A stretch of 64,000 bases of DNA, taken from the NCBI GenBank assembly GCA_027487735.1, contig JAIYDA010000130.1, forward strand, positions 1,930 to 65,929, given 5' to 3'. The notes under the pieces were generated by a model. It worked only from the letters and a program-made list of their open reading frames with translations. It did not search any database and was not told the DNA's origin. Below, piece after piece: positions 1 to 17,214 of the stretch (the first letter of the stretch is position 1; the number at the start of each line of letters is the position of its first letter). This stretch comes from Planctomycetaceae bacterium (GTDB lineage Bacteria; Planctomycetota; Phycisphaerae; Phycisphaerales; UBA1924). The position numbers were made by a program, and so were the translations under genes.

Positions 1-1378
1 GCCAGAAGATGTCCAGGTTCGCCTTGTCGCGCTTCATCAGCTCGTCATAGTCAAAGGCTCGCCAGCGTCCTTCGGGTCCGACGCCGCTTTTCCCTTCCGC
101 CTCCGCCCATGTCGGCTTTCTCGTGTGCCGCCCGTCCGGCTTGTAGCACGCCACAAAATCGTCGAGGTCGGCCCGTTTCAGCGGTCGCTCCTTCTGCGTG
201 AAATGCATGTTGGTCCGCAGGTCATAGACCCACAGCTTCTTCGTCCACGGTGCTTCTTGCGCAGGCTTCGCGTCGAAGAACAACACATTGGCCTTCACGC
301 CCTGCGCATAGAAGATGCCCGTGGGGAGGCGCAATAGCGTGTGCACGTCAAACTGCTTCAGCAGGTTGCGCCGCACCGTCTCCCCCGCGCCGCCCTCGAA
401 GAGCACGTTGTCGGGTAGCACGACCGCCGCGCGGCCGTTCACTTTCAGCAGCGTCTTGATGTGCTGTACGAAGTTGAGCTGCTTGTTCTTGGTTGTCGTC
501 CAAAAATCTTGCCGCTCGTATGAGTTGTCTTCCTTCTCCAGCTCGCCGCCCTCGCCGACGATCGAGATGCTGCTCTTCTTGCCGAAGGGCGGGTTGGTCA
601 GAATCATGCTGAACCGCTCGCCGGGGTCGCTGGCAAGCGAATCCACCCCGCTCTTCACCGGGCACGGGTCCGCGTCGATGCCGTGCAGGTACAGATTCAT
701 GATGCACAGCCGCGCCGTGGCGGCGACCAATTCCCAGGCGTGCACGAAGTTCCGTTTGAGGTGCCTCTTTTGGTCCGGGTCCAGGTCGTTGCCGAAGTGG
801 TCCACGACGTACTTGTGCGCCGCGAGCAGGAACCCGCCCGTGCCCGCCGCTGGATCGCAGACGGTGTCCTCGGGCGTCGGGCGCATGACATCGACCATCG
901 CCTTGATCAGTTCCCTCGGCGTGAAGTACTGACCCGCGCCCTTGGGGCTCTCCGCCGCCGAGCGTGCCAGCAGCCCCTCATAGATGTCCCCCTTGATGTC
1001 CGAGTCCATCCGCGTCCACTGCTCGGCTCCGATCAGGTCCACGATCAGCCGCTTGAGCGTGGCCGGATTCTGGATCTCCATCCGGGCCTTCTTAAAAATC
1101 TCACCGAGCATCCCCGGCTTGTTCCCCAGTGTTTCGAGCACAAGGCGGTAGTGCGTCTCCAGCTCCGCGCCATCGAGCTTGAGCAGCGACTCCCACGACC
1201 ACTTCGCCGGCACGATCGCCGGCCGGTTGTACGGCGGCCGCGTCATTTCATCGGCCATCTTCAGGAAGAGCAGAAACGTGATCTGCTCGGTGTACGCCAT
1301 GTACGAAAGCCCGTCGTCCCGCAGGACGTGGGCGTAGTTCCAGGCTTTATTGACGATCTGGGAGGTTTCTGGAGGCAT
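1..1378 (-). CDS. hsdM: Type I restriction-modification N6-adenine DNA methyltransferase subunit M; 3' end runs off the window
   Basis: Absent from the ORF track because the window edge truncates it. My translation of the minus strand from the ATG at 1378-1376 gives MPPETSQIVNKAWNYAHVLRDDGLSYMAYTEQITFLLFLKMADE... The SAM motif DPAAGTGGFL and catalytic NPPFG are present. It is co-directional with hsdR/hsdS. Confidence 0.9.
   Translation of the reverse strand, partial: MPPETSQIVNKAWNYAHVLRDDGLSYMAYTEQITFLLFLKMADEMTRPPYNRPAIVPAKWSWESLLKLDGAELETHYRLVLETLGNKPGMLGEIFKKARMEIQNPATLKRLIVDLIGAEQWTRMDSDIKGDIYEGLLARSAAESPKGAGQYFTPRELIKAMVDVMRPTPEDTVCDPAAGTGGFLLAAHKYVVDHFGNDLDPDQKRHLKRNFVHAWELVAATARLCIMNLYLHGIDADPCPVKSGVDSLASDPGERFSMILTNPPFGKKSSISIVGEGGELEKEDNSYERQDFWTTTKNKQLNFVQHIKTLLKVNGRAAVVLPDNVLFEGGAGETVRRNLLKQFDVHTLLRLPTGIFYAQGVKANVLFFDAKPAQEAPWTKKLWVYDLRTNMHFTQKERPLKRADLDDFVACYKPDGRHTRKPTWAEAEGKSGVGPEGRWRAFDYDELMKRDKANLDIFW
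1326..1378 (-). repeat. Copy 1 of a 53-nt direct repeat (the true hsdM start region); partner at 2521-2573
   Basis: Ungapped hand alignment of plus strand 1326-1378 against 2521-2573 gives 37 of the first 40 and 43 of 53 positions identical. Both copies end in the complement of an ATG. Confidence 0.85.
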
Positions 1379-1386
1379 AAATGTCG

Positions 1387-2460
1387 TCACCTTGCGATGT
1401 GTGCCGGAGTGAGCGCCATCAAAGTCTTCACCGCATCAGCGCCCTTGGGCAGGAGATAGTGTCTGCGGAGCTTCCGAAGGCTGATGTAGCCGCTCGGGTC
1501 GCTCTCCCACTCGCCAGAAATCTTGCGGTAGAGGGAAAAGCACCCGCCGTCACCGACAAGTATCTTTGAGCAGTTGTGGAGTTGGTGTTTCTCGCAATAG
1601 CCGACAGCTTGCTCGACAACATCCTGGAGGGGATTGTCCATGCCCTTGGCCTCGCACACGAGCCCGCACGAGGACGGAGTTGTTGGCGCGTGCGTAAACA
1701 CGGCCAAGTCAATCTTCCGCCATTCAACCGCCAAGAGCTGCTCGGACCACCCGAGGGCGAGCATGAGCGGGAGGATCATGTGGGCGACGACCTCGTGCTC
1801 GGTCGGTCGCCCCGGCGATCGTTCCTCGCCGTACCAAGCAAGCAGGCCACGGAGTTTCCGGATTGCGCGTTCAACGTGCAGGCAAGCCTCGTAGCCTAAT
1901 CCTTCTCGAAAGAGAGCGTCGGACAACTGCTCCGGGCTGAGCGGCGCGGGCGGCACTTCTGGCAGGTCTCGAAGAGAACGGCGCGTTACCTGCGGAAGAA
2001 GGTGGCGGATAGGGTCCAGACTCGTCGCATCTTTAACGCGCGAGAACGTTGTCACTCGTGGCCGATGTTGAAACAAGCCACTCGAAGACTGGATTTGTTG
2101 GAGCGCTGCATCGTGCTGCCGTTGCCAGATGACACGGCGGCAATGCTCAAGATCCCACCCGTAGATATCGTCGAAGAGCGTGGTGTGGAAGTAGTCACTC
2201 TCCACCACACCGATGGAAAGCACGTTGTACCCAGAGCGCAGGAGCACCAAGTCACCCGACTGCACCTCGGTCGCAATTTGACGGATGTACGTGATCTTGC
2301 CCTCGCCCTCCACTTGAGCCTCTGGATTCTCGTCATAGAGGCTCGATGAATAGGGCCCGAACCGGCCCGGTCCGAGGAACATCACATCGTGATCGAGAAA
2401 CAGGCGCTGATAGCGTCGTCCCTTCTCCCCGCACGCGATTTGCCATACCTGAGGATTCAC
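1387..2460 (-). CDS. Cassette gene B: hypothetical nuclease with an unassigned N-terminal module and an HsdR_N-like PD-(D/E)xK endonuclease domain
   Basis: The ORF track gives 1387..2466 with a TTG start. I prefer the GTG at 2460, preceded by AGGAG (2468-2472) at a 7-nt spacing. The C-terminal half reads EHEVVAHMILPLMLALGW...IDLAVF...VCEAKG, the same D...ExK pattern as the N-terminus of the hsdR in this window (FADYLL...VIEAKSEG). The N-terminal ~130 aa (VWQIACGEKG...GDLVLLRSGYNVLSIGVVESDY) are unassigned. Third-position GC looks lower than in the housekeeping genes. Confidence 0.6.
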   Translation of the reverse strand: MNPQVWQIACGEKGRRYQRLFLDHDVMFLGPGRFGPYSSSLYDENPEAQVEGEGKITYIRQIATEVQSGDLVLLRSGYNVLSIGVVESDYFHTTLFDDIYGWDLEHCRRVIWQRQHDAALQQIQSSSGLFQHRPRVTTFSRVKDATSLDPIRHLLPQVTRRSLRDLPEVPPAPLSPEQLSDALFREGLGYEACLHVERAIRKLRGLLAWYGEERSPGRPTEHEVVAHMILPLMLALGWSEQLLAVEWRKIDLAVFTHAPTTPSSCGLVCEAKGMDNPLQDVVEQAVGYCEKHQLHNCSKILVGDGGCFSLYRKISGEWESDPSGYISLRKLRRHYLLPKGADAVKTLMALTPAHIAR

Positions 2461-2573
2461 TCGCAAGCTCCTAGGGAACGGCCGATGGAAACGGTTTGCG
2501 ACCGCTCCTTACTCTGTAGAACGTGGGCGTACTTCGAGGCTTTGTTGACGATCTGGGAGGAGTTAGCCGTCAT
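2457..2573 (-). pseudogene. hsdM-prime: duplicated first ~19 codons of hsdM fused to 19 unrelated codons, forming a 38-codon leader ORF coupled to gene B
   Basis: Hand translation gives MTANSSQIVNKASKYAHVLQSKERSQTVSIGRSLGACE*, compared with the hsdM start MPPETSQIVNKAWNYAHVL. Its ATG (2573) lies 4 nt after the stop of gene A. Its TGA (2459-2457) overlaps the GTG start of B (2460-2458) as GTGA. Confidence 0.6.
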
Positions 2574-2577
2574 GCGT

Positions 2578-3981
2578 TCATGCTCGATGTTCTCTTGTCG
2601 AATCAAACGACTGTGCCAGCAGGCAAGCAATCCTGTACACAGTCCAAACGCGGGATATCAACGGCACATCAGGTAGGTTCCACCCATCGCCGTTCGACCA
2701 AGACCATTTCTCCAGCGCATTTCGATCATTCGCGGCCGCCGCCGCACCAAGCTCCGCTGCCACGGACTTAATGGAAGGTGTTGCTTCGGTGGACTTCGAA
2801 ACAAACAAGGCGCACGTGCGAAGCGCATCGCAGACGATCTTGTCTCGTACCGCTTCGCGCACACACGACCAATCGAAACGGCTCTCGAGGGCATTCAACA
2901 GATCTTCAATGGCTCGAAATTCCTCGGAGTTCATGTCGACAAGCCTGGCAGCGGCCTTGTCGCGTGTAAGCAAAGAACGCGCGGACGCCCACACCTCACC
3001 AGACTCTATGGCCTTCGCGAGAAGCGTGCGTGCGCTATTGCTCGTCTCGACGACAGGCGGCTTCTCCACAGGCGCCAAGCTTTGGGCTATAGCCTCGCGA
3101 CTGAGTGCTTTCAAGATCCGTGCACGCCAGCGAACGCGCTCAAACGCTGTCAGAGATGCAACATGGCCGGAATCCCCAGTGTCCGCGTCGTTCACGGCTC
3201 GGCGGTCATACCCGTGGACGTAGAGCGACCTGGATACATAAGCCCCATTGAAAAATGCGCGCCGTTCAGGATCATCGCCATACCGACTGCACAAAGCGTT
3301 CACGAATCGACGTTGCCCATCGCTTCTGGTGTCAATGCCCATTGCAGCTTCGATGGCAGCGCAGTGCGTGGCACAGTCATGCGCAAAGCTGCCAAATAGT
3401 TGGTCATTGAAATGAGTGCGAAAGTACTGGCGAACCGCGACGATGCGGCGGTCTTGCGGATCGTGAGCCATGAGCGCGAGTAGGGCGCTCGCGTCTGCTC
3501 GGTCAACATGAAGTCGCCTTGCTCTGTCCATTCCACGGATAGAGAGGGGCGGGAACACACGAAAGTATTTGGCGCTTTCCATGGCCCTCACGTACTTTGA
3601 GTATAAAGTAACGTTTTGCGACGGGTCACTGGCGTCGCCGGGCACAGACAATCCGTAACAGGCGAATTGCTCCGCCGCAATGCTTTGACGGCCATCGTCG
3701 GCCAACCAATGCAGTACGGCTGCGATCTCCTCCATGTATCGCTGCAGCCAGTCGGGATCATCCGAGCGCACCAAAGTGCCGTAGATGGGGTCGCCGTCGC
3801 GACCTTCCCATGTGTATGGCAATGTCCGAAAAATCGTCATGTATTCCGGACGCTTGCGACCCATCCGCGTGTTCCATACCTCGTCGCTGTCGTCCAAGAC
3901 CTCCGCTTTGCCAAGTGCCAACGACTGCGCTTCACCGTGCTTCCACTGAACCGACAAGTATGGTAACCACAAGAAAATCAC
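2578..3981 (-). CDS. Cassette gene A: hypothetical protein with a candidate HEPN-type Rx4H motif
   Basis: The ORF track gives 2578..4362, but everything upstream of 3981 overlaps hsdS. The GTG at 3981 overlaps the hsdS stop (GTGA) and follows AGGAAG. An alternative ATG lies at 3864. The motif SRSLYVHG (R-x4-H) follows the helical-looking FAHDCATHCAAIEAAMGI. There is no P-loop and no recognisable R, M or S domain. Confidence 0.55.
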   Translation of the reverse strand: MIFLWLPYLSVQWKHGEAQSLALGKAEVLDDSDEVWNTRMGRKRPEYMTIFRTLPYTWEGRDGDPIYGTLVRSDDPDWLQRYMEEIAAVLHWLADDGRQSIAAEQFACYGLSVPGDASDPSQNVTLYSKYVRAMESAKYFRVFPPLSIRGMDRARRLHVDRADASALLALMAHDPQDRRIVAVRQYFRTHFNDQLFGSFAHDCATHCAAIEAAMGIDTRSDGQRRFVNALCSRYGDDPERRAFFNGAYVSRSLYVHGYDRRAVNDADTGDSGHVASLTAFERVRWRARILKALSREAIAQSLAPVEKPPVVETSNSARTLLAKAIESGEVWASARSLLTRDKAAARLVDMNSEEFRAIEDLLNALESRFDWSCVREAVRDKIVCDALRTCALFVSKSTEATPSIKSVAAELGAAAAANDRNALEKWSWSNGDGWNLPDVPLISRVWTVYRIACLLAQSFDSTREHRA

Positions 3982-5588
3982 TTCTTGGTACTTCCTAGGG
4001 AGTGGACCTTTGCTTTGACCCGTGAAGCCGGAGGACAGGAACGTGGCGATGAACCTGCTTGAGTGTCCACGACAATCGGACGGTCGCTCGGGTCTTGCGG
4101 CACGAGTTCGCCCTCGAAGGCGCGTTTGAGGATGGCTTGGCGGAGGCGGGCGGCGCGCTGGAGGGCGTGCTCGACCTGCGTCTCGGCGGCGTCGGCGACG
4201 GAGAGGCGGCGATCGACCTCGGCGACGATCTCGGCTTGTTCGGCGAGCGGCGGCAACGGAAGCGGAAGCGCCCGCGACATGCTCACCGAAATGTTGTGCT
4301 GTCCAGCCGTTGCCTTCGCCTGAGAGGTGATCCATTGCAGAACCGGATCGGCGAGCAGGCATGTCGCCAGATAACGGTTAGTGATGCCTGGGCCTGCGCG
4401 GAAAGACACGATAGCTTGGTTCGTGTTCCATTCCGGGTAGAGGTCCGGCACGATCGACACTTTGCCCAGCGGAGGCCCCACGATGTTCATCAGCACATCG
4501 CCCGGAATCGCACGAGAGCGATTCAGTCTCCCGCGGTGTGTCTGCCGCGCGATGAATGTGGGCTTGATTGTGAAGTCCAATGCGCCGGTGAAGGTGAGGT
4601 TGTAGACCTTGATGAACGGCACTTCTCCGCTCCCCGCCTGCATCTCGTCAGGCGGCGGCGTGCTTCCGCTCTCGATACTCGTGCAAAGCTGAAGCGATCC
4701 CGCCCATGACCACGAGGGTGGCAGTTGGAAGGGGAATGGGGCATGGGGCGACGGCGGCTCCTCGTACTTCTCCCTCCACCCCTTCGGTGGCGTCTTCCCC
4801 GCCTCCTTGAACTTGCGGAGTTGGTCCTGCTCCCACTTGGCGCGGCGTTCGGCGAGGATGCGTTCGAGGAGCTTGGCGGCGGGCTCGGTGGCCGGGTGCC
4901 GCGTGCGCCATTCCTCGGTCAGACGCCCCTCGACGGCGGCCTTGAGCACGGCCGCGCGGTACCGCTTCAGGTTCGCCCTCACCCGCTCCAACGCGGCCAC
5001 GCCCGCATCGAGGTCGGAGAAGAGTTCCTCGATCTTGGCAACGATGCGGCGCTGTTCGGCAACAGGTGGCAGACCGATGCTCAGCGCCTTCGCCTCCGGA
5101 AAGTAGATCGTTGTGTGCGTGGTGCCCTTACCGAACTTGAGCAGGCTATCGCGCTCGGCGATTAGCAAGTACATCAAGAACTCTGGCGCGAGCGCATCGG
5201 AACACTTCCAGTTCACGAAGTCTTGGCTCGTCGCCATCGGTCGGTCCATGATGGTGACGTAGCCGACGGATGCCGTTCGAGAGAGGCAAACAGTGTTCGC
5301 TGGCAGCAGCACAGATGCCGAGTTGTCCAACCCGGCCTGCGTCACCGTCTGAAAGGTGGAGGTGATCCTGCGCCCGTGGAATACGCGGGCGTCCTTGATG
5401 CCGATCCACGCGATGTCGCCGTCCCAGTATTTCGGATGATTGCGACTCGGCGTATGGCCCGTCGCCATCTCCGCGACATCAGTGAGGCGCACCCACTTCC
5501 AGCCGCGGGCGAGCGGCATGTCGGGGATGCCCACCGCGATCGCGTACTTCCCTGGCGTAACGTCTGATGTGGCGGCGCGACCACTCAT
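3978..5588 (-). CDS. hsdS: Type I restriction-modification specificity subunit S (two target-recognition domains)
   Basis: The conserved-region signatures LPPVAEQRRIVAKIEELFSDLDAGVAALERVRANLKRYRAAVLKAAVEG and LPPLAEQAEIVAEVDRRLSVADAAE each follow a variable domain. The ATG at 5588 overlaps the hsdR stop (ATGA). Confidence 0.9.
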   Translation of the reverse strand: MSGRAATSDVTPGKYAIAVGIPDMPLARGWKWVRLTDVAEMATGHTPSRNHPKYWDGDIAWIGIKDARVFHGRRITSTFQTVTQAGLDNSASVLLPANTVCLSRTASVGYVTIMDRPMATSQDFVNWKCSDALAPEFLMYLLIAERDSLLKFGKGTTHTTIYFPEAKALSIGLPPVAEQRRIVAKIEELFSDLDAGVAALERVRANLKRYRAAVLKAAVEGRLTEEWRTRHPATEPAAKLLERILAERRAKWEQDQLRKFKEAGKTPPKGWREKYEEPPSPHAPFPFQLPPSWSWAGSLQLCTSIESGSTPPPDEMQAGSGEVPFIKVYNLTFTGALDFTIKPTFIARQTHRGRLNRSRAIPGDVLMNIVGPPLGKVSIVPDLYPEWNTNQAIVSFRAGPGITNRYLATCLLADPVLQWITSQAKATAGQHNISVSMSRALPLPLPPLAEQAEIVAEVDRRLSVADAAETQVEHALQRAARLRQAILKRAFEGELVPQDPSDRPIVVDTQAGSSPRSCPPASRVKAKVHSLGSTKK

Positions 5589-8410
5589 GCCACCAACCTC
5601 TCATTCATCTCGCTCAGCAGCGTCGGCAGCGACTCGCCGAAGACCTCGTACGCCGCGCCCAGCCCGCCCATCTGCTTGAAGGGCACATCCTCCAGCGCCT
5701 CGGCTTCGATGGCCAGCGATGCGGCGATGTGGTCCTTGATTGCATCGAGCCACTTGCGCTGCTGGGGGGCGAACGTCACTCCCGCCTTCGCTTTATCCGC
5801 CAGCCACGCCGCGTACCGCTCCTCCACGACCTCCTCAACCGGTACCAGCGGCGTCTTGCCATCGATCGCGTGTTTGACGAGCGCGACAAGATCGACGAGC
5901 TGTTTGCCACCTTTGCCCTTGGTAGTGCCTGTCTCAACGGCCTCGAAGGCGTTCCACAAGCGGCCGACTGTTTCGGGCTTCCTGGCATCGACAAAGAACG
6001 GTGACCCACTCAGTTTCAACGCGAGTTCCTTGACCTGTCCATACCGCAGGCCTGCACGGTAGGGCCGACTGTAGAGGATACGGATTGCCTCGATCTCGTC
6101 CTTGTTCTCTTCGACGAATGTCTTGAATGAAGTGACAACCGAACGTGCCTTTTCGAGTGCGGCCGCATCGAACCCTACTCGAACAAGCGAGTCATGATTG
6201 ACTTCGTCAAAAACCTGCTCGGCGGCGGCCTTTACACGGAGGATGGTGTTGCGGAGCTTTGGGTTGAGGAACGGCTTGAGTGCCTCGGCCATCGCCGCCC
6301 GCTCGACCTGTTCGATCTGATGCTCGGTGGGTTCTTGACCTGGCGGAAGCTTGAGAGCTTCTGCGGCTCGCGCGGCGTTGATGTCGGTGTCGATACTCGC
6401 GAGCAGCGCGGCTGCAAGGCTTGAGAGGCCCTTGCCGCCCGCTTCCTTGCTGATCTCTGCTTTGCGATCATCGTCAAGCTCGCGATCGAGTCGCGCGAGG
6501 CGAGAGGCGAGCGTTGAGACGAGATCGTCACTCACTGCACCTGCTGCAACGGTGTTGAGAACTTTCTCGAGCGCAACCGACGGCTGGCGGTCGAGGGGTT
6601 TGGAGAGGGACTTCTCAGATTCGGTGACGCCGACGGCATCGACGATGACGAAGTGGGTCTTTTTGCCGCCTGGAGCGTGCTTCGTCACAACCTCGAGCAT
6701 GTCGGGGTGAATAATGCGACACCCTCGCCCCTTCATTTGCTCAAAGTAAGCAGCCGAAGTGATGTTCCTCATGAATAACAAACACTCAAGAGGTTTTACA
6801 TCCGTTCCCGTTGCAATCATGTCAACAGTGACGGCGACGCGAGGAAAGTGCTGGTTGCGAAAATCAGACAACAACTCATCGGGCTTTTTGCCAGTAGACT
6901 TACTTGTGATCTTTTGACAGAAATCGTTTCCTTTGCCGAACTCTTCTCGGATAATGCGAGTGATATCGTCAGCGTGCAAGTCAGTCTTGGCGAAGACGAG
7001 CGTCTTGGGACATTCGTATGTGCCAGTTTCTGCATCGAAACGGCCTGGAAAGATCTCCGGCAGCTTATCTCGAAACGTGCGAATCACCAGACGTATCTGA
7101 CTCTCGTTTACGACATCTCGGTCGAGTTGGGTGCCGGTGTACTGGACATCATCGTCGAGCGCTTCGTATCGCTTCTTGCGGGTTGTGCGATCACGGCGGG
7201 GCACGAGATAGTCTGGCTTTTTCGCCAGCGTCGCCCCGTCCTTCGTGACTTTGGTTTCGATGCGATACACGTCGTATCCGACATTGACGCCATCGAGCAC
7301 GGCTTGCTCGTGCGTGTACTCCATCACGAGGTTGCCGTTGAAAAAACCGATGGTTTGGGCGCTTGGAGTGGCGGTCAGACCAACGAGCGTGGCGTCGAAG
7401 TACTCCAACACCTGACGCCACACGTTGTAGATGGAGCGATGACACTCGTCGATGATGATGAAGTCGAAGAACTCTGGGGGAATCTTGTCGTTGTACACAA
7501 CGGGCAGAGGCTGCTTGATGAGAGCGTTTGCGGCCTCAAACATCGACGACTCTTCGCCCGTGTCATCAAAGGCTTCCTCCCCTTTGAGGATCGAGTAGAG
7601 CCGCTGGATCGTGGTGATGACGACCTTCGAAGCCGGATCAATCGAGTTCTTCTTGAGATGCTGAACGCCGTACTCCTCCGTGAACTTGTATTGGTTGTAT
7701 GGCGAGGAAAACTGCTGAAACTCATTCAGCGTTTGGCGTCCCAGGTTGTTCCGGTCTACGAGAAAGAGAACGCGCTTTGCACCACCAAACTTGATGAGTC
7801 TATAGGCAATGTTGCAAGCGGTGAATGTCTTGCCCGCACCCATGACCATTTGAATGAGAGCGCGCGGATGGTCGGCAGCGAGTGATCGCTCGAGATTCGT
7901 TATTGCCGTAACCTGCTTCTCCCAGAGCCGTGAAGCGTCCAACGGGGGCATGCCGCGAAGACTGGCTCGAAGCTGCGAATCGAGGCTCGCGAGTCTCGCC
8001 AACTCTTCCGGGCGATGGAATGCAAAGACCTCGCGGCTGCGAGGGTGCGGATCAAGAGTATTGGTGAAGTGGGTAACCGCCCCGGTGGACTCGTATGCAA
8101 ACGGCAACGGTGTCCCTTCGGGCATCCACCTCGGAAGGCCCTTGGGCAACCCCGCCGTGTACTTTGCCGACTGAGTTTCGACGCCCCGAAGGGTGTGGCC
8201 CTCAGACTTGGCCTCAATGACCCCAATCGCCTTCCCCATCGAGTACAGGAGATAGTCGGCAAAGCCGGTCGCGAGCGGAAACTCGCGTACCGCGACCCCG
8301 ATGCCCGCTCGAAGGTCCATGTCGCGATAGTCCTGCACACTCCAGCCGCACTGCGCCAAGATCCGATCGATCGTCTGCCGCGCGAGTTGTTCCGGGGAAG
8401 ATGGTGGCAC
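5585..8410 (-). CDS. hsdR: Type I restriction enzyme R subunit (HsdR_N nuclease plus SF2 helicase/translocase)
   Basis: N-terminus is QTIDRILAQCGWSV...FADYLL...VIEAKSEG. Walker A is MVMGAGKTFT, the DEAH-like box is IIIDECHRS, and the helicase C motifs are MIATGTDV and QMKGRGCR. The start codon at 8410 is GTG. Confidence 0.9.
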   Translation of the reverse strand: MPPSSPEQLARQTIDRILAQCGWSVQDYRDMDLRAGIGVAVREFPLATGFADYLLYSMGKAIGVIEAKSEGHTLRGVETQSAKYTAGLPKGLPRWMPEGTPLPFAYESTGAVTHFTNTLDPHPRSREVFAFHRPEELARLASLDSQLRASLRGMPPLDASRLWEKQVTAITNLERSLAADHPRALIQMVMGAGKTFTACNIAYRLIKFGGAKRVLFLVDRNNLGRQTLNEFQQFSSPYNQYKFTEEYGVQHLKKNSIDPASKVVITTIQRLYSILKGEEAFDDTGEESSMFEAANALIKQPLPVVYNDKIPPEFFDFIIIDECHRSIYNVWRQVLEYFDATLVGLTATPSAQTIGFFNGNLVMEYTHEQAVLDGVNVGYDVYRIETKVTKDGATLAKKPDYLVPRRDRTTRKKRYEALDDDVQYTGTQLDRDVVNESQIRLVIRTFRDKLPEIFPGRFDAETGTYECPKTLVFAKTDLHADDITRIIREEFGKGNDFCQKITSKSTGKKPDELLSDFRNQHFPRVAVTVDMIATGTDVKPLECLLFMRNITSAAYFEQMKGRGCRIIHPDMLEVVTKHAPGGKKTHFVIVDAVGVTESEKSLSKPLDRQPSVALEKVLNTVAAGAVSDDLVSTLASRLARLDRELDDDRKAEISKEAGGKGLSSLAAALLASIDTDINAARAAEALKLPPGQEPTEHQIEQVERAAMAEALKPFLNPKLRNTILRVKAAAEQVFDEVNHDSLVRVGFDAAALEKARSVVTSFKTFVEENKDEIEAIRILYSRPYRAGLRYGQVKELALKLSGSPFFVDARKPETVGRLWNAFEAVETGTTKGKGGKQLVDLVALVKHAIDGKTPLVPVEEVVEERYAAWLADKAKAGVTFAPQQRKWLDAIKDHIAASLAIEAEALEDVPFKQMGGLGAAYEVFGESLPTLLSEMNERLVA

Positions 8411-8825
8411 GTGAGGGCTCGAACTTGAGAAAGTTACACGACGCGAAGTGTAACCAGGCTTCGATGAGCACAGCGGCTTGGGTGTAGAGCCGCGCAGAAG
8501 AGCGGGCAGACATCATGTACATACCTCGCAAGTACAGTCCCACGCCTGCAAGCCTGAGCATTCCGCTTAGTGTTTCCGAGACGGATGTGCAGCAGCACTT
8601 GCGCCGCTGATGCTGGCTTCAATCTGCTGCTACACCCATGGTCTGCATTCCGCTCAAGGCCCTTGTACAGCCTGAGCCTCCTCGACAGGCGGCTGAGCCT
8701 TCGGGAGTGTTCTTCCCGGTCCTCGCCCGTTCCATTCGGTGTGGTACGTCATCGTTGCCGCGCGAGCGTGCCGACTCTCAGGCTGTGGTTGCTCCGAAGT
8801 TGGCGCACTGACCGACTCGGCGCGC

Positions 8826-8886
8826 GTATGCGCTTGTGATTTGTGGCGATTGTGCGGCGTATGCGCTGGTATGCGCGGGTATGCGC
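8826..8886 (+). repeat. Iteron-like GTATGCGC repeats: one copy at 8826, then three copies phased at 10 bp (8859, 8869, 8879)
   Basis: Read directly from cgcGTATGCGCttg...ggcGTATGCGCtgGTATGCGCggGTATGCGCtac. The repeats lie 40-100 nt upstream of the first island HTH gene, in the divergent gap between hsdR and the integration module. Confidence 0.6.
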
Positions 8887-8954
8887 TACTCGTTTCTGGA
8901 TACTCCTGGCCGGCGAAAGGACGCGCTATGCGGCTGCCCACGGAAGTGTTCAAG

Positions 8955-9155
8955 ATGGCACAAGGAATGGAACTGTTGACGAGTCGAGAGTTGGCGAAGC
9001 ACCTTCGGGTGAAGCCCGAGACTGTGCGAGACTGGGCGCGGCGCGGGCGAATCCCCGTGCTGCGGCTTTCGCCAAAAGTGATCCGCTACAACGCCGACGC
9101 TGTAATCGCGGCGCTGTTGGCCACGCCAGTGGAGGGGGTGTCACATGGCAAGTGA
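8955..9155 (+). CDS. Excisionase/AlpA-type helix-turn-helix DNA-binding protein
   Basis: MAQGMELLTSRELAKHLRVKPETVRDWARRGRIPVLRLSPKVIRYNADAVIAAL. Alternative ATG starts lie at 8928 and 8967. The 8739 start in the ORF track is unlikely. Confidence 0.7.
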   Translation: MAQGMELLTSRELAKHLRVKPETVRDWARRGRIPVLRLSPKVIRYNADAVIAALLATPVEGVSHGK

Positions 9156-9390
9156 TGCAAGCACCTCAGCGACGACGGCCCCGTTGTTGATTGACGCCAA
9201 GGAGACGTGCGCCCTGCTGTGCCTTGGCGAACGGCGTGTTTGGGAGCTGTCGAACTGTCGCGCCATCCCGTCATTCAAGATCGGCAAGTCGCGTCGGTAC
9301 TGCCCGGATGAACTGCGAGCGTGGATTCGTGCCGGATGCCCCACCGAACCTGGCGCGGGCGATCGACTTCGGAAGGCGGTGCGCCCATGA
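9145..9390 (+). CDS. Second excisionase-family HTH DNA-binding protein
   Basis: LLIDAKETCALLCLGERRVWELSNCRAIPSFKIGKSRRYCPDELRAWI. It overlaps the previous gene by 11 nt and the next by ATGA. Confidence 0.7.
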   Translation: MASDASTSATTAPLLIDAKETCALLCLGERRVWELSNCRAIPSFKIGKSRRYCPDELRAWIRAGCPTEPGAGDRLRKAVRP

Positions 9391-11951
9391 CCCTGACGCG
9401 GAACCACGCGACCACCGCATCTAGGCCTGAAGGGTGGTGCGGCATGAGCGACCCCGTACAACGAATCCTCACAGCCCTCCGCGACCACGGCCACGAACCC
9501 CGCAAGGCGGGCGCGGGCTGGACTTGCAACTGTCCGGCCCACGATGATCGCGCCCCTTCCCTTTCAATCCGAGAGGGCGACGACGGCCGCGCGTTGGTGC
9601 ATTGCCACGCCGGTTGCACCGTCGATGCGGTGTGCGACGCGCTCGCGCTGCGACCCTCCGACCTGTTCGCACGCGACCCGAGTGGGCGGAACGGACACGC
9701 ACCCAAGTCGCGGCGACGTGGCGACGGCGACGAAACTACACGCAAGCCCGCGCGCGGCGGGGATTCTGTCACCGTCGCCAGTGACGCCACGGACGGGCGT
9801 ACGTTCCGCACGGCCCGCGAAGCCGTCGCCGAGTTGGAGCGGCGACACGGCCCACGATCGACATACTGGACCTATCACAACGCGGCGGGCGAGCCCGTGG
9901 GGCTGGCGGTGCGATGGAACACGCCCACCGGGAAAGAAATGCGCCCGGTGTCGCGGAAGGCGGACGGGTCGCGCTGGTACATCGGCGGGATGCCCACACC
10001 CCGACCGCTGTACGCGCTGCCCGAAGTGCTAGCGACGCCACCGGGAGGGCGAGTGTGGGTGTGCGAGGGCGAGAAGGCGGCGGACGCGGCCCGAGCAATC
10101 GGACTGCTGGCAACAACAAGCCCGCACGGCGCGAAGTCGGCAGCGAAGGCGGATTGGTCGCCGTTGGCTGGGCGCGAGGTTGTGATCCTGCCCGACCATG
10201 ACGACGCAGGCGAGGCGTACGCCGACGACGTGGCGCGGCTGGCGACAGCTGCGGGCGCGAGGTCGGTGAGGGTGGTTCGGCTGGTACAACTATGGGCAGA
10301 GATGCCCGAAGGGGGCGATATGGCGGACCTGCTTGAGCATCGCGGCGGGGAAGTGGACGGGACACGCGCGGCACTTGAGGCCCTCATCGACGCCTCCGAG
10401 GCGCGCAGTGTGGAGCCCGAGGCGAGAGAGGTTCCAGCGTTCAAACCCTTCCCGGTTGAGGTACTGCCCGAGCCGCTGCGCGCGTTCGTTATCCAGGCGG
10501 CAGATGCGATCGGGTGTGATGCGTCATTCGTGGCGTTGCCCCTGCTGTCTGGGCTCGCATCATCGATCGGGAACACCCACCGCATCGAGTTGAAGCGCGG
10601 ATGGACCGAGCCCGCGATCGTTTGGGCGGCGATTGTGGGCGAGAGCGGTACATCGAAGTCGCCCGCGATGGAGCTGGCCCTTCGTGCGATTCGCAAGCGG
10701 CAAGGCGCGGCGATGAAGGAACACGCCGAAGCGATGAAGCAGTACGAGGGTGCGCTCGCCCTGTACGAACGCGACTCGGGGAACTGGAAGAAGTCCAAGT
10801 CAAAAGAGCCCCCACCCGCGAAGCCCGACGCCCCGATCGCGGATCGGTGTTGGACCGACGACGCGACCACCGAAGCCCTTGCAGTTTTGCTGCAACAAAG
10901 CCCGCGCGGATTGCTCATGGTGCGCGATGAACTCGCCGGGTGGTTCAACTTCGACCGCTATGCGGGCGGCAAGGGCGGCGGCGACGCCGCGAAGTGGTTG
11001 GAGATGTTCGGCGGTCGCGAAATGGTGGTGGATCGCAAAGGGGGCGGCATGCTCTACGTGCCCCGCGCGGCAGTATCGATCGCAGGCGGTATCCAACCGG
11101 CGACGCTCCGGCGCGCGCTGGGGCAGGAACACCGCGACAACGGACTCGCGGCTCGGCTGCTGCTGGCCCATCCCCCCCGCAAGCCCAAGAAATGGACCGA
11201 AGCCGACATACAGCCCCACACAGAAGCTGCGCTGGCGGCGGTGTTCGATCGGCTCTTCGGACTGACGATGGAAACTGGCGACGAAGGCGACGAACGGCCC
11301 CGAGTCGTGACGCTCGCCGACGATGGAAAGTGGGCGTGGGTGCGGTTCTATAACGAACACGCGGGCGAGCAGGCGACCCTGTCGGGCGACGAGGCGGCAG
11401 CGTGGTCGAAGCTCGAGGGGTATGCGGCGCGGATTGCGTTGGTGGTTCACCTCACCCGCTGCGCAGCTGGCGATCCCACGATCGACGATCGGACCAAGGT
11501 TGACGCGTCGAGCGTCTCGGCAGGCGTCGTGCTAGCCCGATGGTTTGGTGACGAGGCCCGACGCGTCTACGCGATGCTTGGCGAGTCGGACGAAGAGCGG
11601 GCATTGCGCGAGCTGGTGGATTGGATCAGGCGCAAGGGCGGCACCGTGAGCGTGCGCGATCTGACGCGTGGACCGCGCGAGTATCGCAACGCTGAAAAGG
11701 CGAAGAAGGCACTCGGAGAACTGGTGACGCTGGGCGAGGGGCGGTGGGAAATCGATACCCACGCTGGCGGACGCGGGCGTCCTGTGGATCGGTTCCGGCT
11801 TGTCCAGCGTGGTGACACTGGTGACGGTGACACAAATGGAGGAAATGCGGCCGAGTATGGTATTTCTGTCGCCGTCACCACCGACGCCGATCGCAAGATG
11901 ACCACCGGCGCACGGGGAACTTTCGGGGATTGGCGCGCGGTGAATCGATGA
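9387..11951 (+). CDS. Island primase/replication protein: zinc-binding N-terminus, Toprim domain, DUF3987-like C-terminal domain
   Basis: Zn motif is CNCPAHDDRAPSLSI...VHCHAGC. Toprim is VWVCEGEKAADA...ILPDHDDAGEAYA. The DUF3987-like region is AAIVGESGTSKSPA...CWTDDATTEALAVLL...VRDELAGWF. I chose the ATG at 9387 (ATGA overlap with the upstream stop) over the track start at 9321. Confidence 0.75.
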   Translation: MTLTRNHATTASRPEGWCGMSDPVQRILTALRDHGHEPRKAGAGWTCNCPAHDDRAPSLSIREGDDGRALVHCHAGCTVDAVCDALALRPSDLFARDPSGRNGHAPKSRRRGDGDETTRKPARGGDSVTVASDATDGRTFRTAREAVAELERRHGPRSTYWTYHNAAGEPVGLAVRWNTPTGKEMRPVSRKADGSRWYIGGMPTPRPLYALPEVLATPPGGRVWVCEGEKAADAARAIGLLATTSPHGAKSAAKADWSPLAGREVVILPDHDDAGEAYADDVARLATAAGARSVRVVRLVQLWAEMPEGGDMADLLEHRGGEVDGTRAALEALIDASEARSVEPEAREVPAFKPFPVEVLPEPLRAFVIQAADAIGCDASFVALPLLSGLASSIGNTHRIELKRGWTEPAIVWAAIVGESGTSKSPAMELALRAIRKRQGAAMKEHAEAMKQYEGALALYERDSGNWKKSKSKEPPPAKPDAPIADRCWTDDATTEALAVLLQQSPRGLLMVRDELAGWFNFDRYAGGKGGGDAAKWLEMFGGREMVVDRKGGGMLYVPRAAVSIAGGIQPATLRRALGQEHRDNGLAARLLLAHPPRKPKKWTEADIQPHTEAALAAVFDRLFGLTMETGDEGDERPRVVTLADDGKWAWVRFYNEHAGEQATLSGDEAAAWSKLEGYAARIALVVHLTRCAAGDPTIDDRTKVDASSVSAGVVLARWFGDEARRVYAMLGESDEERALRELVDWIRRKGGTVSVRDLTRGPREYRNAEKAKKALGELVTLGEGRWEIDTHAGGRGRPVDRFRLVQRGDTGDGDTNGGNAAEYGISVAVTTDADRKMTTGARGTFGDWRAVNR

Positions 11952-12208
11952 TGGGAACGCTTGCACAATCCGAAGTAATGGGGTACAGTATGAGTATGGG
12001 AAGCATCACGGGAACACTTCGAAGGGCCTTGGAGCAGTGCGGGCAAACCCGCTATGCGGTCAGCAAGGCGACGGGGATACCCGAATCCACGTTGTCGCGG
12101 TTCGTGGCGGGTGGAAAGCCCTTACGGGGCGAAAACATGGACAAACTGGCGGACTACCTGGGGCTGGTGTTGGTGGCAAAGGCGGGCAAAGCTCGAAAGG
12201 ACCGGTGA
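11948..12208 (+). CDS. Small XRE-like HTH protein
   Basis: RYAVSKATGIPESTLSRFVAGGKPL. The ATG at 11948 overlaps the primase stop. Later in-frame ATGs are also possible starts. Confidence 0.55.
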   Translation: MMGTLAQSEVMGYSMSMGSITGTLRRALEQCGQTRYAVSKATGIPESTLSRFVAGGKPLRGENMDKLADYLGLVLVAKAGKARKDR

Positions 12209-12211
12209 GAC

Positions 12212-13738
<1,527 letters not shown>

Positions 13739-14514: not shown

Positions 14515-17214
14515 CTACTTGGGCGGGGCGGCTTCGAGGGCGGCGGCTTCGGCTTCGGTTTTGGCGATCCAGTTTTGGCGGGCTTGCCACTGGGAGCCTG
14601 GGGTGTCTTGGGTGAAGACCTCGCAGGCGGCACGCATGGCGGCGGCGGCGGAGCGGAGGTGGGTTGCGTTGGATGTTGCATTGCCGAGATCGCGGAGGGC
14701 GAGGGCGATGTTGCTTTGCGTCAAGGCTCGGTCTTGCGGCAGGGCGGTGCGGGTATACACCTGCAGCGCGAGGCGATACGCAGCGACCGCCTCGGCGAGC
14801 GAGCGTGCGCGGTCGGAGCCTTCCCTGGCCGCGGCTTGGTCACGGAGGGCGTTGGCAAGGTTGTTCTGCGTGCGTGCCCAGTCTTGCGGGAGGGTGGCGC
14901 GGGTGTGCACCTCCAGCGCGAGTTGGCAGGCAGCGACCGCCTCCGCGAGCAGGCGTGCGCGGTCGGTGCCTTCGCTCGCAGCGGCTTGGTCGCGGAGGGC
15001 AATGGCAAGGTTGTTCTGCGTCATGGCCCAGCTTTGCGCGAGGGCGGTGCGGGTGCGCACCTCCAGCGCGAGGCGGCAGGCAGCGACCGCGTCTGCGAGC
15101 AGGCGTGCGCGTTCGGTGCCTTTGCTGGCGCTGGCTTGGTCGCGAAGGGCATTGGCAAGGTTGTTCTGCGTGGCTGCCCAGTCCTGCGGGAGGGCGGTGC
15201 GGGTGTACACCTCCAGCGCGCGGCGGTAGGCAGCGACCGCCTCTGCGAGCAGGCGTGCGCGGTCGGGGCCTTCCCTGGCCGCAGCTTGGTTGCGGAGGGC
15301 AGCGGCAAGGTTGTTCTGCGTGGCTGCCCAGCTTTGCGGGAGGGCGGAGCGGGTACGAACCTCGAGCGCGAGGCGAAGGGCAGCGACCGCCTCGTCGAGC
15401 AAGAGTATGCGGTCGGGGCCTTCACTGGCGGCGGCTTGGTCGCGGAGGGCAGCGGCAAGGTTGTTCTGCGTCATTGCCCAATCATGCGGGAGGGCGGTGC
15501 GGGTGTACACCTGCAGCGCGAGGCGATACGCAGCGACCGCCTCGGCGAGCGAGCGTGCGCGGTCGGCGCCTTCGGTGCCAGCGGCTTGAGCGCTGAGGGC
15601 AACGGCAAGGTTGTTCTGCGTCATGGCCCAGTCTTGCGGGAGGGCGGTGTGGGTGAAAACCTCTAGCGCGAGGCGGAAGGCAACGACCGCCTCGGCGAGC
15701 AATCGTGCACGGTCGGCGCCTTCGGTGGCGGCGGCTTGGTCGCGGAGGGCATTGCCAAGGTTGTTCTGCGTGGCTGCCCAGCTTTGCGGGAGGGCGGAGC
15801 GGGTACGAACCTCGAGCGCGAGGCGGAAGGCAGTAACCGCCTCTGCGAGCAAGCCTGCGCGGTCGGCGCCTTCGCTGACGGCGGCGTGGTTGCAGAGGGC
15901 AATGGCAAGGTTGTTCTGCGTGCCTGCCCAGTCTTGCGGGAGGAAAGTGCGGGTGTAGAACGCGAGCACTTCGCGATAGAGGTCGATCGCTCGGGCTCTG
16001 CGCTTGGTGATGGGGGCACCTTCGCTGGTGCTTGCCCATTCGCTCAGTGTGTCCGCGAGCCATGACGTGGCATTGGCGTAGGAGACTGGTGCGGCGTCCT
16101 TGGGTGCGAGGGCGCGGGCTTGTTCGAAGGCGGTGGCGGCTTGCTCGAAGCTGCGCTGGGCGTGCAGGGAGCGGCCTTGGAGCATGCGGGCTTCGCGCTC
16201 GGCGGTGGTGGCGGCTTCGAGCTCGGCTTGCATCGTGGTGACCACTTGCTGCGCGGCGAGGCGTTTTTGTTGGGCTTGTTCGGCGGCGGCGCCAGCGTTC
16301 GTGGCGGCGCTCGCGAAGTTTTTGTCGGCGAAGTCGGCGAGGGCTTTATCAAGAAAAGCTGCGGCGGGGTCGGCGCGGATGGCGGCGATGAAGCTGGTGA
16401 TGCCGGTGCGGAGCGTGTCTTGGGAGATGCCAAACTCGGTGGCGACGTGCTCGATGGCTTTGTCTTGGATTTGTGCGGGCGTGAGCGGGGGTGTTGCGTG
16501 CAGATTGGCGGATCGCTGGCTTTCGAGCTTGCCGTAGGCCTCGACGACGAACTCGGTCATTTTTCGCTGCTGGCGCAATGCTTCTTCGGCAGTGTCGCAC
16601 TTTGCTTGCAAGAGCTCTCTGTCCTTCTTGGCTTGGGCTCGCACGCGGCGGAGCTTTTGCTGCACGAGGTGCAACTCCTCGCGGATGGCGTTGACCCTCT
16701 CTTGCAGTGCTAGGACGCGCTCTTTGAGTGAGGCGTGGGTTGCAACGGGCTCAAAGATGTGGTCCGTGCCCATGAGGGCTGCGCGGTGGGCGTGTTGGAG
16801 GGCACGTTTGTCGGCGGGTTCGGCGGGCTCCCGCGAGCCGTCGGGCAGGGTGCGTGGGGGGTCGTAGGGAAAGTTGTCGGCGCAGATGAAGACGTAGACG
16901 GGGAGACCGAGTTGCTTGGCGATGTCGAACTCGAGCTGGGTGTAGCTGCGGCGTGGGTCGGTCTCGGCGCGCTGGGTGGGTTCGAAGCCGTAGGCCTCGC
17001 CCACGATGTGGATGACGGCGCGGCATTCGCCGATTGTTTTGGTGAGCATTTCGCGCACGGTGGCGGCGCTGGGTGGGAAGTCTGTCTGCTCGACGGAGAT
17101 GCAGCCGAGCTTTCTGAGTGCGTCGCTGGCGATCTGGCGGCAGGAGCGAAGGTCGCGCGAGGTGGCGCTGATGAAGATTTTGGGGGAGATGTCGGGCGGG
17201 GCGGGGGGAGCCAT
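14515..17214 (-). CDS. DUF4062/TIR-like N-terminal domain, coiled coil, and ~9 x 50-residue TPR-like repeats
   Basis: N-terminus is KIFISATSRDLRSCRQIASDALRKLGCISVEQTDF...VIHIVGEAYG...YTQLEFDIAKQLGLPVYVFI. The coiled coil is RVNAIREELHLVQQKLRRVRAQAKKDRELLQAK. Repeated units have the form ALPQDWAxTQNNLAxALRDQAAAxEGxDRARLLAEAVAAYRLALEVxTRT. No NTPase motif is present. Confidence 0.8.
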   Translation of the reverse strand: MAPPAPPDISPKIFISATSRDLRSCRQIASDALRKLGCISVEQTDFPPSAATVREMLTKTIGECRAVIHIVGEAYGFEPTQRAETDPRRSYTQLEFDIAKQLGLPVYVFICADNFPYDPPRTLPDGSREPAEPADKRALQHAHRAALMGTDHIFEPVATHASLKERVLALQERVNAIREELHLVQQKLRRVRAQAKKDRELLQAKCDTAEEALRQQRKMTEFVVEAYGKLESQRSANLHATPPLTPAQIQDKAIEHVATEFGISQDTLRTGITSFIAAIRADPAAAFLDKALADFADKNFASAATNAGAAAEQAQQKRLAAQQVVTTMQAELEAATTAEREARMLQGRSLHAQRSFEQAATAFEQARALAPKDAAPVSYANATSWLADTLSEWASTSEGAPITKRRARAIDLYREVLAFYTRTFLPQDWAGTQNNLAIALCNHAAVSEGADRAGLLAEAVTAFRLALEVRTRSALPQSWAATQNNLGNALRDQAAATEGADRARLLAEAVVAFRLALEVFTHTALPQDWAMTQNNLAVALSAQAAGTEGADRARSLAEAVAAYRLALQVYTRTALPHDWAMTQNNLAAALRDQAAASEGPDRILLLDEAVAALRLALEVRTRSALPQSWAATQNNLAAALRNQAAAREGPDRARLLAEAVAAYRRALEVYTRTALPQDWAATQNNLANALRDQASASKGTERARLLADAVAACRLALEVRTRTALAQSWAMTQNNLAIALRDQAAASEGTDRARLLAEAVAACQLALEVHTRATLPQDWARTQNNLANALRDQAAAREGSDRARSLAEAVAAYRLALQVYTRTALPQDRALTQSNIALALRDLGNATSNATHLRSAAAAMRAACEVFTQDTPGSQWQARQNWIAKTEAEAAALEAAPPK
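14690..16040 (-). repeat. About nine tandem 150-bp coding repeats (the TPR-like units)
   Basis: The anchor ggcaaggttgttctgcgt (or a variant) recurs at 14704, 14854, 15004, 15154, 15304, 15454, 15604, 15754 and 15904, exactly 150 bp apart. Confidence 0.85.

Follow-up and report, generated by a model that had tools for sequence, protein, structure and literature searches.

The DNA analysed here, the window, is a 64,000-nt stretch of contig JAIYDA010000130.1 (positions 1,930 to 65,929) from assembly GCA_027487735.1 of a Planctomycetaceae bacterium. At its left end the minus strand carries a single packed type I restriction-modification (R-M) operon comprising, in order, hsdR, hsdS, a gene designated A, a 38-codon leader open reading frame (ORF), a gene designated B, and hsdM. 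The leader begins with a copy of the hsdM start, and this copy, the relic, probably marks the locus as a hybrid in which a block carrying A and an hsdM fragment was joined into an operon of the order hsdR-hsdS-B-hsdM. The two contributing loci would have been versions of one type I R-M family that differed in the accessory gene (A-type or B) held in the slot between hsdS and hsdM. A first-pass annotation of the same DNA had read the repeat as a recombination scar and B as the newcomer; the scar with its hsdM 5' fragment stood up to comparison with related loci, whereas the late arrival of B did not, B being apparently ancestral in those relatives.

A copy of the hsdM start upstream of gene B

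Plus-strand positions 1326-1378 and 2521-2573 aligned without gaps at 43 of 53 positions, and at 37 of the first 40, as the first-pass annotation had counted. Elsewhere in the 64-kb window, on either strand, the 53-mer was matched without gaps at no more than 29/53 positions, and 100 shuffles gave at most 31, so that chance falls far short of explaining the repeat. A repeat search delimited its core to 43 nt with 91% identity (1323-1365 and 2518-2560). The description of the two reading frames also proved accurate. The leader ATG (2573-2571) lies 4 nt past the TGA of A (2580-2578), and the hsdM ATG (1378-1376) lies 8 nt past the TGA of B (1389-1387). Translation of the upstream copy gives MTANSSQIVNKASKYAHVL, compared to MPPETSQIVNKAWNYAHVL at the start of hsdM. 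The leader runs for 38 codons (2573 to 2457), contains an AGGAG at 2472-2468 and stops in a GTGA (2460-2457) that overlaps the GTG start of B.

Similarity between the relic and hsdM extended, at a lower level, beyond the first 57 nt. At leader nt 58-90 the two sequences were identical in register at 16/33 positions (null mean 8.9, P=0.0055), and past nt 90 identity dropped to 4/27. The final ~33 nt before B could instead be aligned, anchored at the end, to the non-coding DNA that precedes B in L049 (p=0.012), one of the related loci that are given here by an L and a number. From these alignments, the leader appears to be a two-piece chimera of an hsdM 5' end and the native B-upstream region, with seemingly no sequence of its own. 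A conserved independent gene, which would have contradicted the reading of the leader as an hsdM fragment, was not what we found: the leader was absent from every relative, and neither it nor a second hsdM-like fragment was present upstream of B in ~50 B loci. No Pfam, NCBIfam or PADLOC match was obtained for the leader.

We also sought the hsdM gene nearest to the relic, and all clade members proved equidistant, each hsdM start being identical to that of the relic at 43-47 of 57 positions, with the hsdM of the window itself no closer. The relic carries the changes W13S and N14K, at two residues that were invariant in all HsdM proteins compared. Together, the loss of these residues and the equal distance from all hsdM starts read as the signature of an unconstrained fragment. 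The first-pass claim of a recombination scar involving the 5' end of an hsdM gene was upheld.

Two other origins for the leader were considered and rejected. An assembly artefact is at odds with copies that differ at 10/53 positions, with the private substitutions of the relic and with its continuation into sequence of neither parent path. As for a derivation of the 3' half of the leader from an hsdS tail, a 9-mer (p~0.06) was all that it had in common with the hsdS tail of the window, and the hsdS tails of L002, L050 and L052 were unmatched.

Position of gene B in related operons

The order hsdR-(x)-hsdS-(x)-B-hsdM, where x is a further gene if present, was common to L001, L002/L003, L050, L052-54 and the partial locus L049. 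In L002/L003, L050 and L052-54 the arrangement was hsdR-(x)-hsdS-B-hsdM, with hsdS overlapping B. A 258-aa gene lay between hsdS and B in L001, and in L049, which encodes the closest B (85-86% identity), the two genes were separated by a 380-nt spacer full of CCACGTGG boxes. The outgroup L024 was likewise hsdR-hsdS-B-hsdM, with 54%, 47% and 63% identity to the window for hsdR, B and hsdM, respectively. Overall, the B-hsdM junction was colinear in every B-type relative compared (the close relatives and L024), and the divergence of B tracked that of hsdR and hsdM.

Because B lies between hsdS and hsdM in all close relatives and in the outgroup, it is ancestral in the slot before hsdM in this type I family, and not a late arrival. 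The first-pass claim that B came after the R-M operon is not supported, B occupying the same slot in all of these loci, L024 included.

The left junction and the A-type occupant of the slot

Compared to L001, L002, L049, L050, L052 and L056, the hsdS DNA of the window was near-identical through ...CAAGACCCGAGCGAC (position 4083) and then broke abruptly at 4083|4082, where the relatives run on as DEPAAALLER... and the window has an unrelated 32-codon tail (RPIVVDTQ...STKK). G+C content at third codon positions was 0.47 in this tail vs 0.80 in the hsdS core. The boundary 4083|4082 thus appears to be the left edge of a foreign block. As hsdS agrees with its relatives as far as 4083 and no further, the block would start with the new hsdS tail, continue through A and end within another hsdM, of which it holds the initial 57-90 nt; A together with the hsdM fragment behind it is more likely to be the derived element.

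The first-pass annotation had predicted that related loci without B would have a single copy of the hsdM start directly after hsdS or A, and L056, from a Planctomycetota metagenome-assembled genome (MAG), is such a locus (hsdS-A'-hsdM): its hsdS and hsdM are separated by an A homolog, hsdM begins 14 nt after that homolog, and B is absent. L056 belongs to the same clade as the window (hsdR 80%, hsdM 89% identical) and is as close to it as the B-type loci are. In L059 an A homolog begins 9 nt after hsdS. With A homologs in the slot in L056 and L059, A-type and B-type genes are thus alternative occupants of one hsdS-hsdM slot.

The A family is rare. An exhaustive HMMER scan of 1.84 billion proteins yielded 81 representatives, with full-length matches and a best identity of 36%; a word-indexed protein search returned solely the A of the window, and a profile search added one further protein. 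The N-termini of the homologs backed the A start codon. Apart from those in L056 and L059, A homologs were solitary genes among housekeeping genes. L059 (1-4274) has a stacked slot of its own, in which hsdS is followed by the A homolog, by a 256-aa gene that overlaps it and matches PDDEXK_4 weakly, and then by a gene beginning MSTEAKTIQIFLPDGDPRGIRI.

A probable history of the locus

Under the hybrid origin that we favour, a block of ~1.6 kb (4082 to ~2484-2517) would have been joined into an hsdR-hsdS-B-hsdM operon, bringing in A, the new hsdS tail ahead of it and, behind it, 57-90 nt from the start of the hsdM that formerly followed A. The left join falls where the conserved hsdS region ends, and this region may have served as a homology anchor; the right join would have been illegitimate, connecting the foreign hsdM fragment to the ~33 nt that lie ahead of B. 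The leader would then be a pseudogene fragment in the old hsdM frame, kept open by descent and chance, and ending at the TGA that is built into every B start and that would originally have been the hsdS stop.

The arrangement of the joints resembles homology-facilitated illegitimate recombination, reportedly described, with gene-fragment relics, by de Vries and Wackernagel in 2002. The features in common with that process are a single possibly homologous anchor (in hsdM or at the conserved end of hsdS), a second junction that is illegitimate, and foreign DNA bordered by part of a gene of the resident type; the difference is that here we infer the mechanism of joining from anatomy alone, in an uncultured planctomycete-like MAG. 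Direct repeats that bracket a gene are also found in target-site duplication by transposons and insertion sequences, but the repeat here is 53-90 nt long and 81% identical, no transposase accompanies it and the bracketed B appears to be ancestral at its site. The repeat search found none of the inverted repeats at the ends of B that would point to a transposon or insertion sequence, and domain and fold searches ruled out B itself as a transposase.

The reverse direction of exchange, essentially the history put forward in the first-pass annotation, would start from a resident hsdR-hsdS-A-hsdM operon. The B-upstream region, B and hsdM would have recombined in from a B-type relative, with homology in hsdM serving the right-hand join, and with an illegitimate left-hand join at hsdM nt 57-90 that stranded the resident hsdM start before B. 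The structure is symmetric and its junction anatomy fits this direction equally well; moreover, L056 provides a B-less hsdS-A'-hsdM locus within the clade, and B with ~40 hsdM codons outside R-M in L023 and L034 suggests that B can relocate with a 5' piece of hsdM. We nevertheless regard this direction as rather unlikely. It is less parsimonious, with two events (ancestral B lost or replaced by A, then regained) vs one, B occupies the slot in six ingroup lineages (five complete loci and the partial L049) as well as in the outgroup, and the break in the hsdS tail would need a separate insertion of A. An attempt to read direction from incongruent identities was abandoned: L052 was closest to the window for hsdM and farthest for B, but the same held in comparison with every other locus, which marks a branch-length effect and not a breakpoint.

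Several observations weigh against the insertion of an A-block as we have set it out. The phylogeny of the clade is star-like, which leaves parsimony as the sole guide to which half was the incoming one. The exhaustive search returned no donor with a close A homolog (best 36% identity), and the arrangement was seen once, the A and B proteins both being singletons in the collection. Divergence along the relic is uneven, with 87% identity over nt 13-57 vs ~48% over nt 58-90; simple neutral decay would not give this pattern, which calls for a junction closer to nt 57, for gene conversion or for selection acting on the initiation region. Finally, the 9-mer TCCCTAGGA is similarly spaced ahead of both GTGA overlaps (hsdS/A and leader/B; p~0.06), which an inserted A-block leaves to chance.

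The recurrence of TCCCTAGGA followed by GTGA ahead of both A and B would be accounted for by a tandem duplication, in which a segment that began in the hsdS tail, took in B and ended at hsdM nt ~90 was doubled (hsdS-B-hsdM'|tail-B-hsdM) and the first B was later swapped for A. This sequence of events is highly improbable: an extra replacement step is required, the 33 nt before B resemble the hsdS tail less than they do the non-coding B-upstream region of L049 (p=0.012), and BLASTP found no similarity between A and B, which also disposed of the two genes as paralogs. For an A-block inserted into a B-type operon, the donor type would be marked by an intact hsdM starting ATGACGGCTAACTCCTCCCAGATCGTCAACAAAGCC behind a close A homolog.

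The leader and the translation of gene B

The window shares the RGGAGY-N6-NTGA at the B start, without change, with L001 and L049, two loci in which B has no ORF feeding into it. NTGA was universal at B starts whatever lay upstream, and in L002 and L050 its TGA serves as the stop codon of hsdS; the stop of the leader within the GTGA overlap would thus have been inherited and not created. B keeps its own AGGAG-N7-GTG site, as do its leaderless relatives, and it is therefore unlikely, judging from these start regions, that translation of B depends on the leader, as had been proposed. The predicted RNA fold of positions 2430-2600 was no more stable than that of shuffled sequences (z=+1.15), with the ribosome-binding site of B not sequestered, and no promoter or terminator signal above shuffles was detected around the leader.

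A selected role for the leader, either as a bridging ORF that couples A to B and hsdM or as a peptide mimicking the N-terminus of HsdM, would be consistent with its intact frame, its ATG 4 nt past the A stop, its stop-start overlap with B, the tight coupling of the operon throughout, and the better preservation of its first 57 nt compared to the remainder. Among the properties expected of a functional leader, however, neither conservation nor occlusion of the ribosome-binding site was observed, and the stop-start overlap, although present, is formed by the universal NTGA. The absence of the leader from all relatives, the loss of residues invariant in HsdM, and a Shine-Dalgarno sequence of B's own that is shared with leaderless loci and sequestered by no structure further argue against selection, and by our estimate an open frame of 38 codons inherited from a coding frame is unsurprising in DNA of 56% GC. 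A selected function is on balance improbable. As the by-product of an inserted A-block, the relic may still be read: it is plausible that ribosomes leaving A reinitiate at the leader ATG and reach B, in which case the leader would be at most a helpful bridge given the Shine-Dalgarno sequence of B itself.

Predicted functions of genes B and A

B belongs to the family DUF8426 (PF28530), for which 383 homologs were detectable, many in Planctomycetota and Verrucomicrobia, and which was not mentioned in the literature searched. The B protein itself gave no Pfam or NCBIfam match, a weak PADLOC match to PDC-S02 and no sequence match to any solved structure. Its structural model (pLDDT 93.8) had as best PDB matches in Foldseek the EVE-HNH enzyme VcaM4I (E 3.8e-4), EVE and YTH domains, and the N-terminal domain of McrB. 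The many EVE and YTH matches had probabilities of 0.95-1.0, although query-normalised TM-scores were low (0.2-0.26) because a single domain aligned; the model includes a reader fold of the PUA-superfamily EVE/YTH type. In the C-terminal half of the protein, D251 and E270-A-K272 were invariant in the B family and sub-threshold similarity was seen to HSDR_N (3/42 members, best E 0.032) and MmeI_N (2/42, best E 0.0023). Foldseek also matched the putative restriction endonuclease domain 9y1l (E 0.013); no nuclease domain was matched at a curated threshold. B is predicted to combine an EVE/YTH-like reader of modified bases with a PD-(D/E)xK-like nuclease, and it may complement the type I system as a nuclease that depends on modification.

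Homologs of B also occurred away from intact R-M loci. In L004 (7291-17083) and L005, the neighbours of a B homolog with 70% identity were a BREX cluster (BrxE, BrxA, BrxB, BrxC) and part of a tyrosine integrase, not a type I system, so B is not limited to type I hosts. Other homologs outside intact R-M loci kept hsd fragments as flanks. L023 has an ORF for an hsdS tail upstream of B (4746-5099) and ~40 hsdM codons with an in-frame stop downstream (7071-7193); L034 has 39 hsdM codons in which the start codon is replaced by ATA (7083-7199); and L031 has a short hsdS piece upstream of B (5762-5839) and an hsdM match (7098-7625) that ends at codon 178. Either R-M systems decayed repeatedly around a retained B, or B moves with its hsd flanks.

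A is a member of a rare family without a recognisable fold match: no Pfam, NCBIfam, PADLOC, PDB sequence-profile or Foldseek PDB match was found, the model having a pLDDT of 81. No profile or fold match connected A with the ABC-ATPase plus anticodon nuclease of the PrrC/RloC guardians. Residues R251, S252, H256 and G257 were invariant across the family (RSxxVHG), in a largely helical C-terminal region. The R251-x4-H256 spacing resembles the motif of HEPN RNases, and serves as a lead and not as a test.

Operon layout and surroundings

Positions are collected in Table 1. HsdM was assigned by N6_Mtase (8.7e-65) and HsdM_N (9.6e-09), the Pfam domains of a type I HsdM, and was 88-94% identical to those of its relatives. 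HsdS has the two target-recognition domains of a type I specificity subunit, both matched by Methylase_S. The hsdR of the window was 74-82% identical to those of L001, L002, L050 (partial), L052 and L056, and 78-82% identical to the products of L001, L002 and L052; its domain assignment (ResIII, DEAD, SWI2_SNF2, EcoEI_R_C) is that of the Pfam records of the hsdR products of relatives. An AGGAAG precedes the GTGA in which hsdS overlaps the start of A.

Table 1. Features of the type I R-M operon and of the adjoining island, in window coordinates.
Feature	Position	Strand	Remarks
hsdM, initial 459 codons	2..1378	-	gene extends past window edge
Downstream repeat copy	1326..1378	-	5' end of functional hsdM
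Gene B	1387..2460	-	357 aa, DUF8426; GTG start in GTGA overlap with leader stop
Leader ORF	2457..2573	-	38 codons; apparent hsdM relic/B-upstream chimera
Native B-upstream region with Shine-Dalgarno sequence	2461..2493	-	AGGAG 2472-2468, 7 nt ahead of GTG
Probable degraded continuation of relic	2484..2516	-	leader nt 58-90; would hold junction with B-upstream DNA
Well-preserved hsdM-5' relic	2517..2573	-	leader codons 1-19; ATG 4 nt past A stop
Gene A	2578..3981	-	467 aa; GTG start in GTGA overlap with hsdS stop
hsdS	3978..5588	-	Pfam Methylase_S, two stretches, 4.6e-27
hsdS new tail	3981..4082	-	RPIVVDTQ...STKK; TGA stop 3980-3978
hsdS core	4083..5588	-	C-terminal conserved region at end, DNA near-identical to relatives
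hsdR	5585..8410	-	941 aa; first gene of operon
HTH_17 excisionase-like ORF	8739-9155
DUF3987 protein	9321-11951
Tyrosine integrase	12212-13732
tRNA-Lys	13665-13738	-	at island end
899-aa ORF	14515-17214	-	N-terminal DUF4062/TIR_2-like domain; just past tRNA-Lys

Hallmarks of an integrative island adjoin the R-M operon (8739-13738), and the 899-aa ORF with its DUF4062/TIR_2-like domain may be another defence gene. Variation among the related operons extended to other sites. The 258-aa gene between hsdS and B in L001 (7187-7963) had no Pfam match, and a second variable slot lies between hsdR and hsdS, holding a DUF4160 gene in L001 (5027-5599) and a 237-aa gene without a Pfam match in L002 (5808-6521). 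In addition, an array of the palindrome CCRCGTGG with 21- or 42-nt spacing was located in the spacer between hsdS and the embedded gene of L049 (1246-1379) and L056 (5841-5869). Six boxes were present in L049 (11 strand-matches vs 0.4 expected) and two in the homologous spacer of L056, and the array was absent from the locus in the window; it could represent a set of operators or else a tandem repeat with a 21-nt period.

Comparison with known embedded genes

Genes embedded in type I R-M systems include PrrC in EcoprrI, TgvAB in VPI-2 of Vibrio cholerae and the 'guilt-by-embedding' candidates of Payne et al. 2024 (PMC11411939; 10.1101/2024.01.29.577857; PMC12707154). Embedding is documented in type I R-M, BREX, DISARM and Hma systems, 96.7% of embedded genes are co-oriented with their host, and its origin has been loosely ascribed to a 'genomic sink' (10.1101/2024.01.29.577857). 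A and B, lying inside hsdR-hsdS-...-hsdM in host orientation and both between hsdS and hsdM, fit the definition of embedded genes used by Payne et al. (10.1101/2024.01.29.577857). B further recalls the logic of a type IV system embedded in a type I system, as in TgvAB of VPI-2 (PMC11411939), in that a nuclease-like domain accompanies its predicted reader fold. Both genes lack homology to PrrC and TgvAB, however, and here two unrelated embedded genes are stacked, with a piece of hsd preserved at the A/B junction, a feature not described in the literature searched. EVE proteins adjoining type I R-M systems are documented (PMC7641849). The best PDB matches of the B model liken it to EVE/YTH modification-dependent enzymes such as VcaM4I, but unlike that EVE-HNH enzyme, B has a C-terminal domain that is not HNH and shows a D...ExK pattern with the sub-threshold HSDR_N/MmeI_N similarity.

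More tentatively, and with the odds against it, the relic might be a trace left by a general pathway for exchanging and stacking accessory defence genes in type I R-M operons. The hsdS-hsdM interval would act as a cassette slot, segments would move from one related locus to another, anchored on the highly conserved hsdS 3' and hsdM 5' ends, and imperfect events would leave hsd fragments on the cargo. Hints in this direction are the hsd pseudogene pieces at B in L023, L031 and L034 and the variable slot in L001, L049, L056 and L059. The relic itself may have been retained for bridging translation from A to B and hsdM.

Genes embedded in R-M and other defence operons now serve the discovery of immune systems, and the route by which they arrive is largely unexplored. 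The scar described here is a product of ordinary molecular evolution, with no new mechanism or regulatory device, and the locus is a new instance of a known arrangement with some value as a tracer of embedded-gene exchange between type I loci. It preserves a datable junction, at which one embedded gene would have arrived from, or merged with, another type I locus, carrying the hsdM start of that locus with it. Fragments of hsd between stacked accessory genes offer a searchable signature for cassette exchange, and two uncharacterised candidates are flagged by the locus: B (DUF8426), a conserved partner of this type I family, and A, from a rare family.

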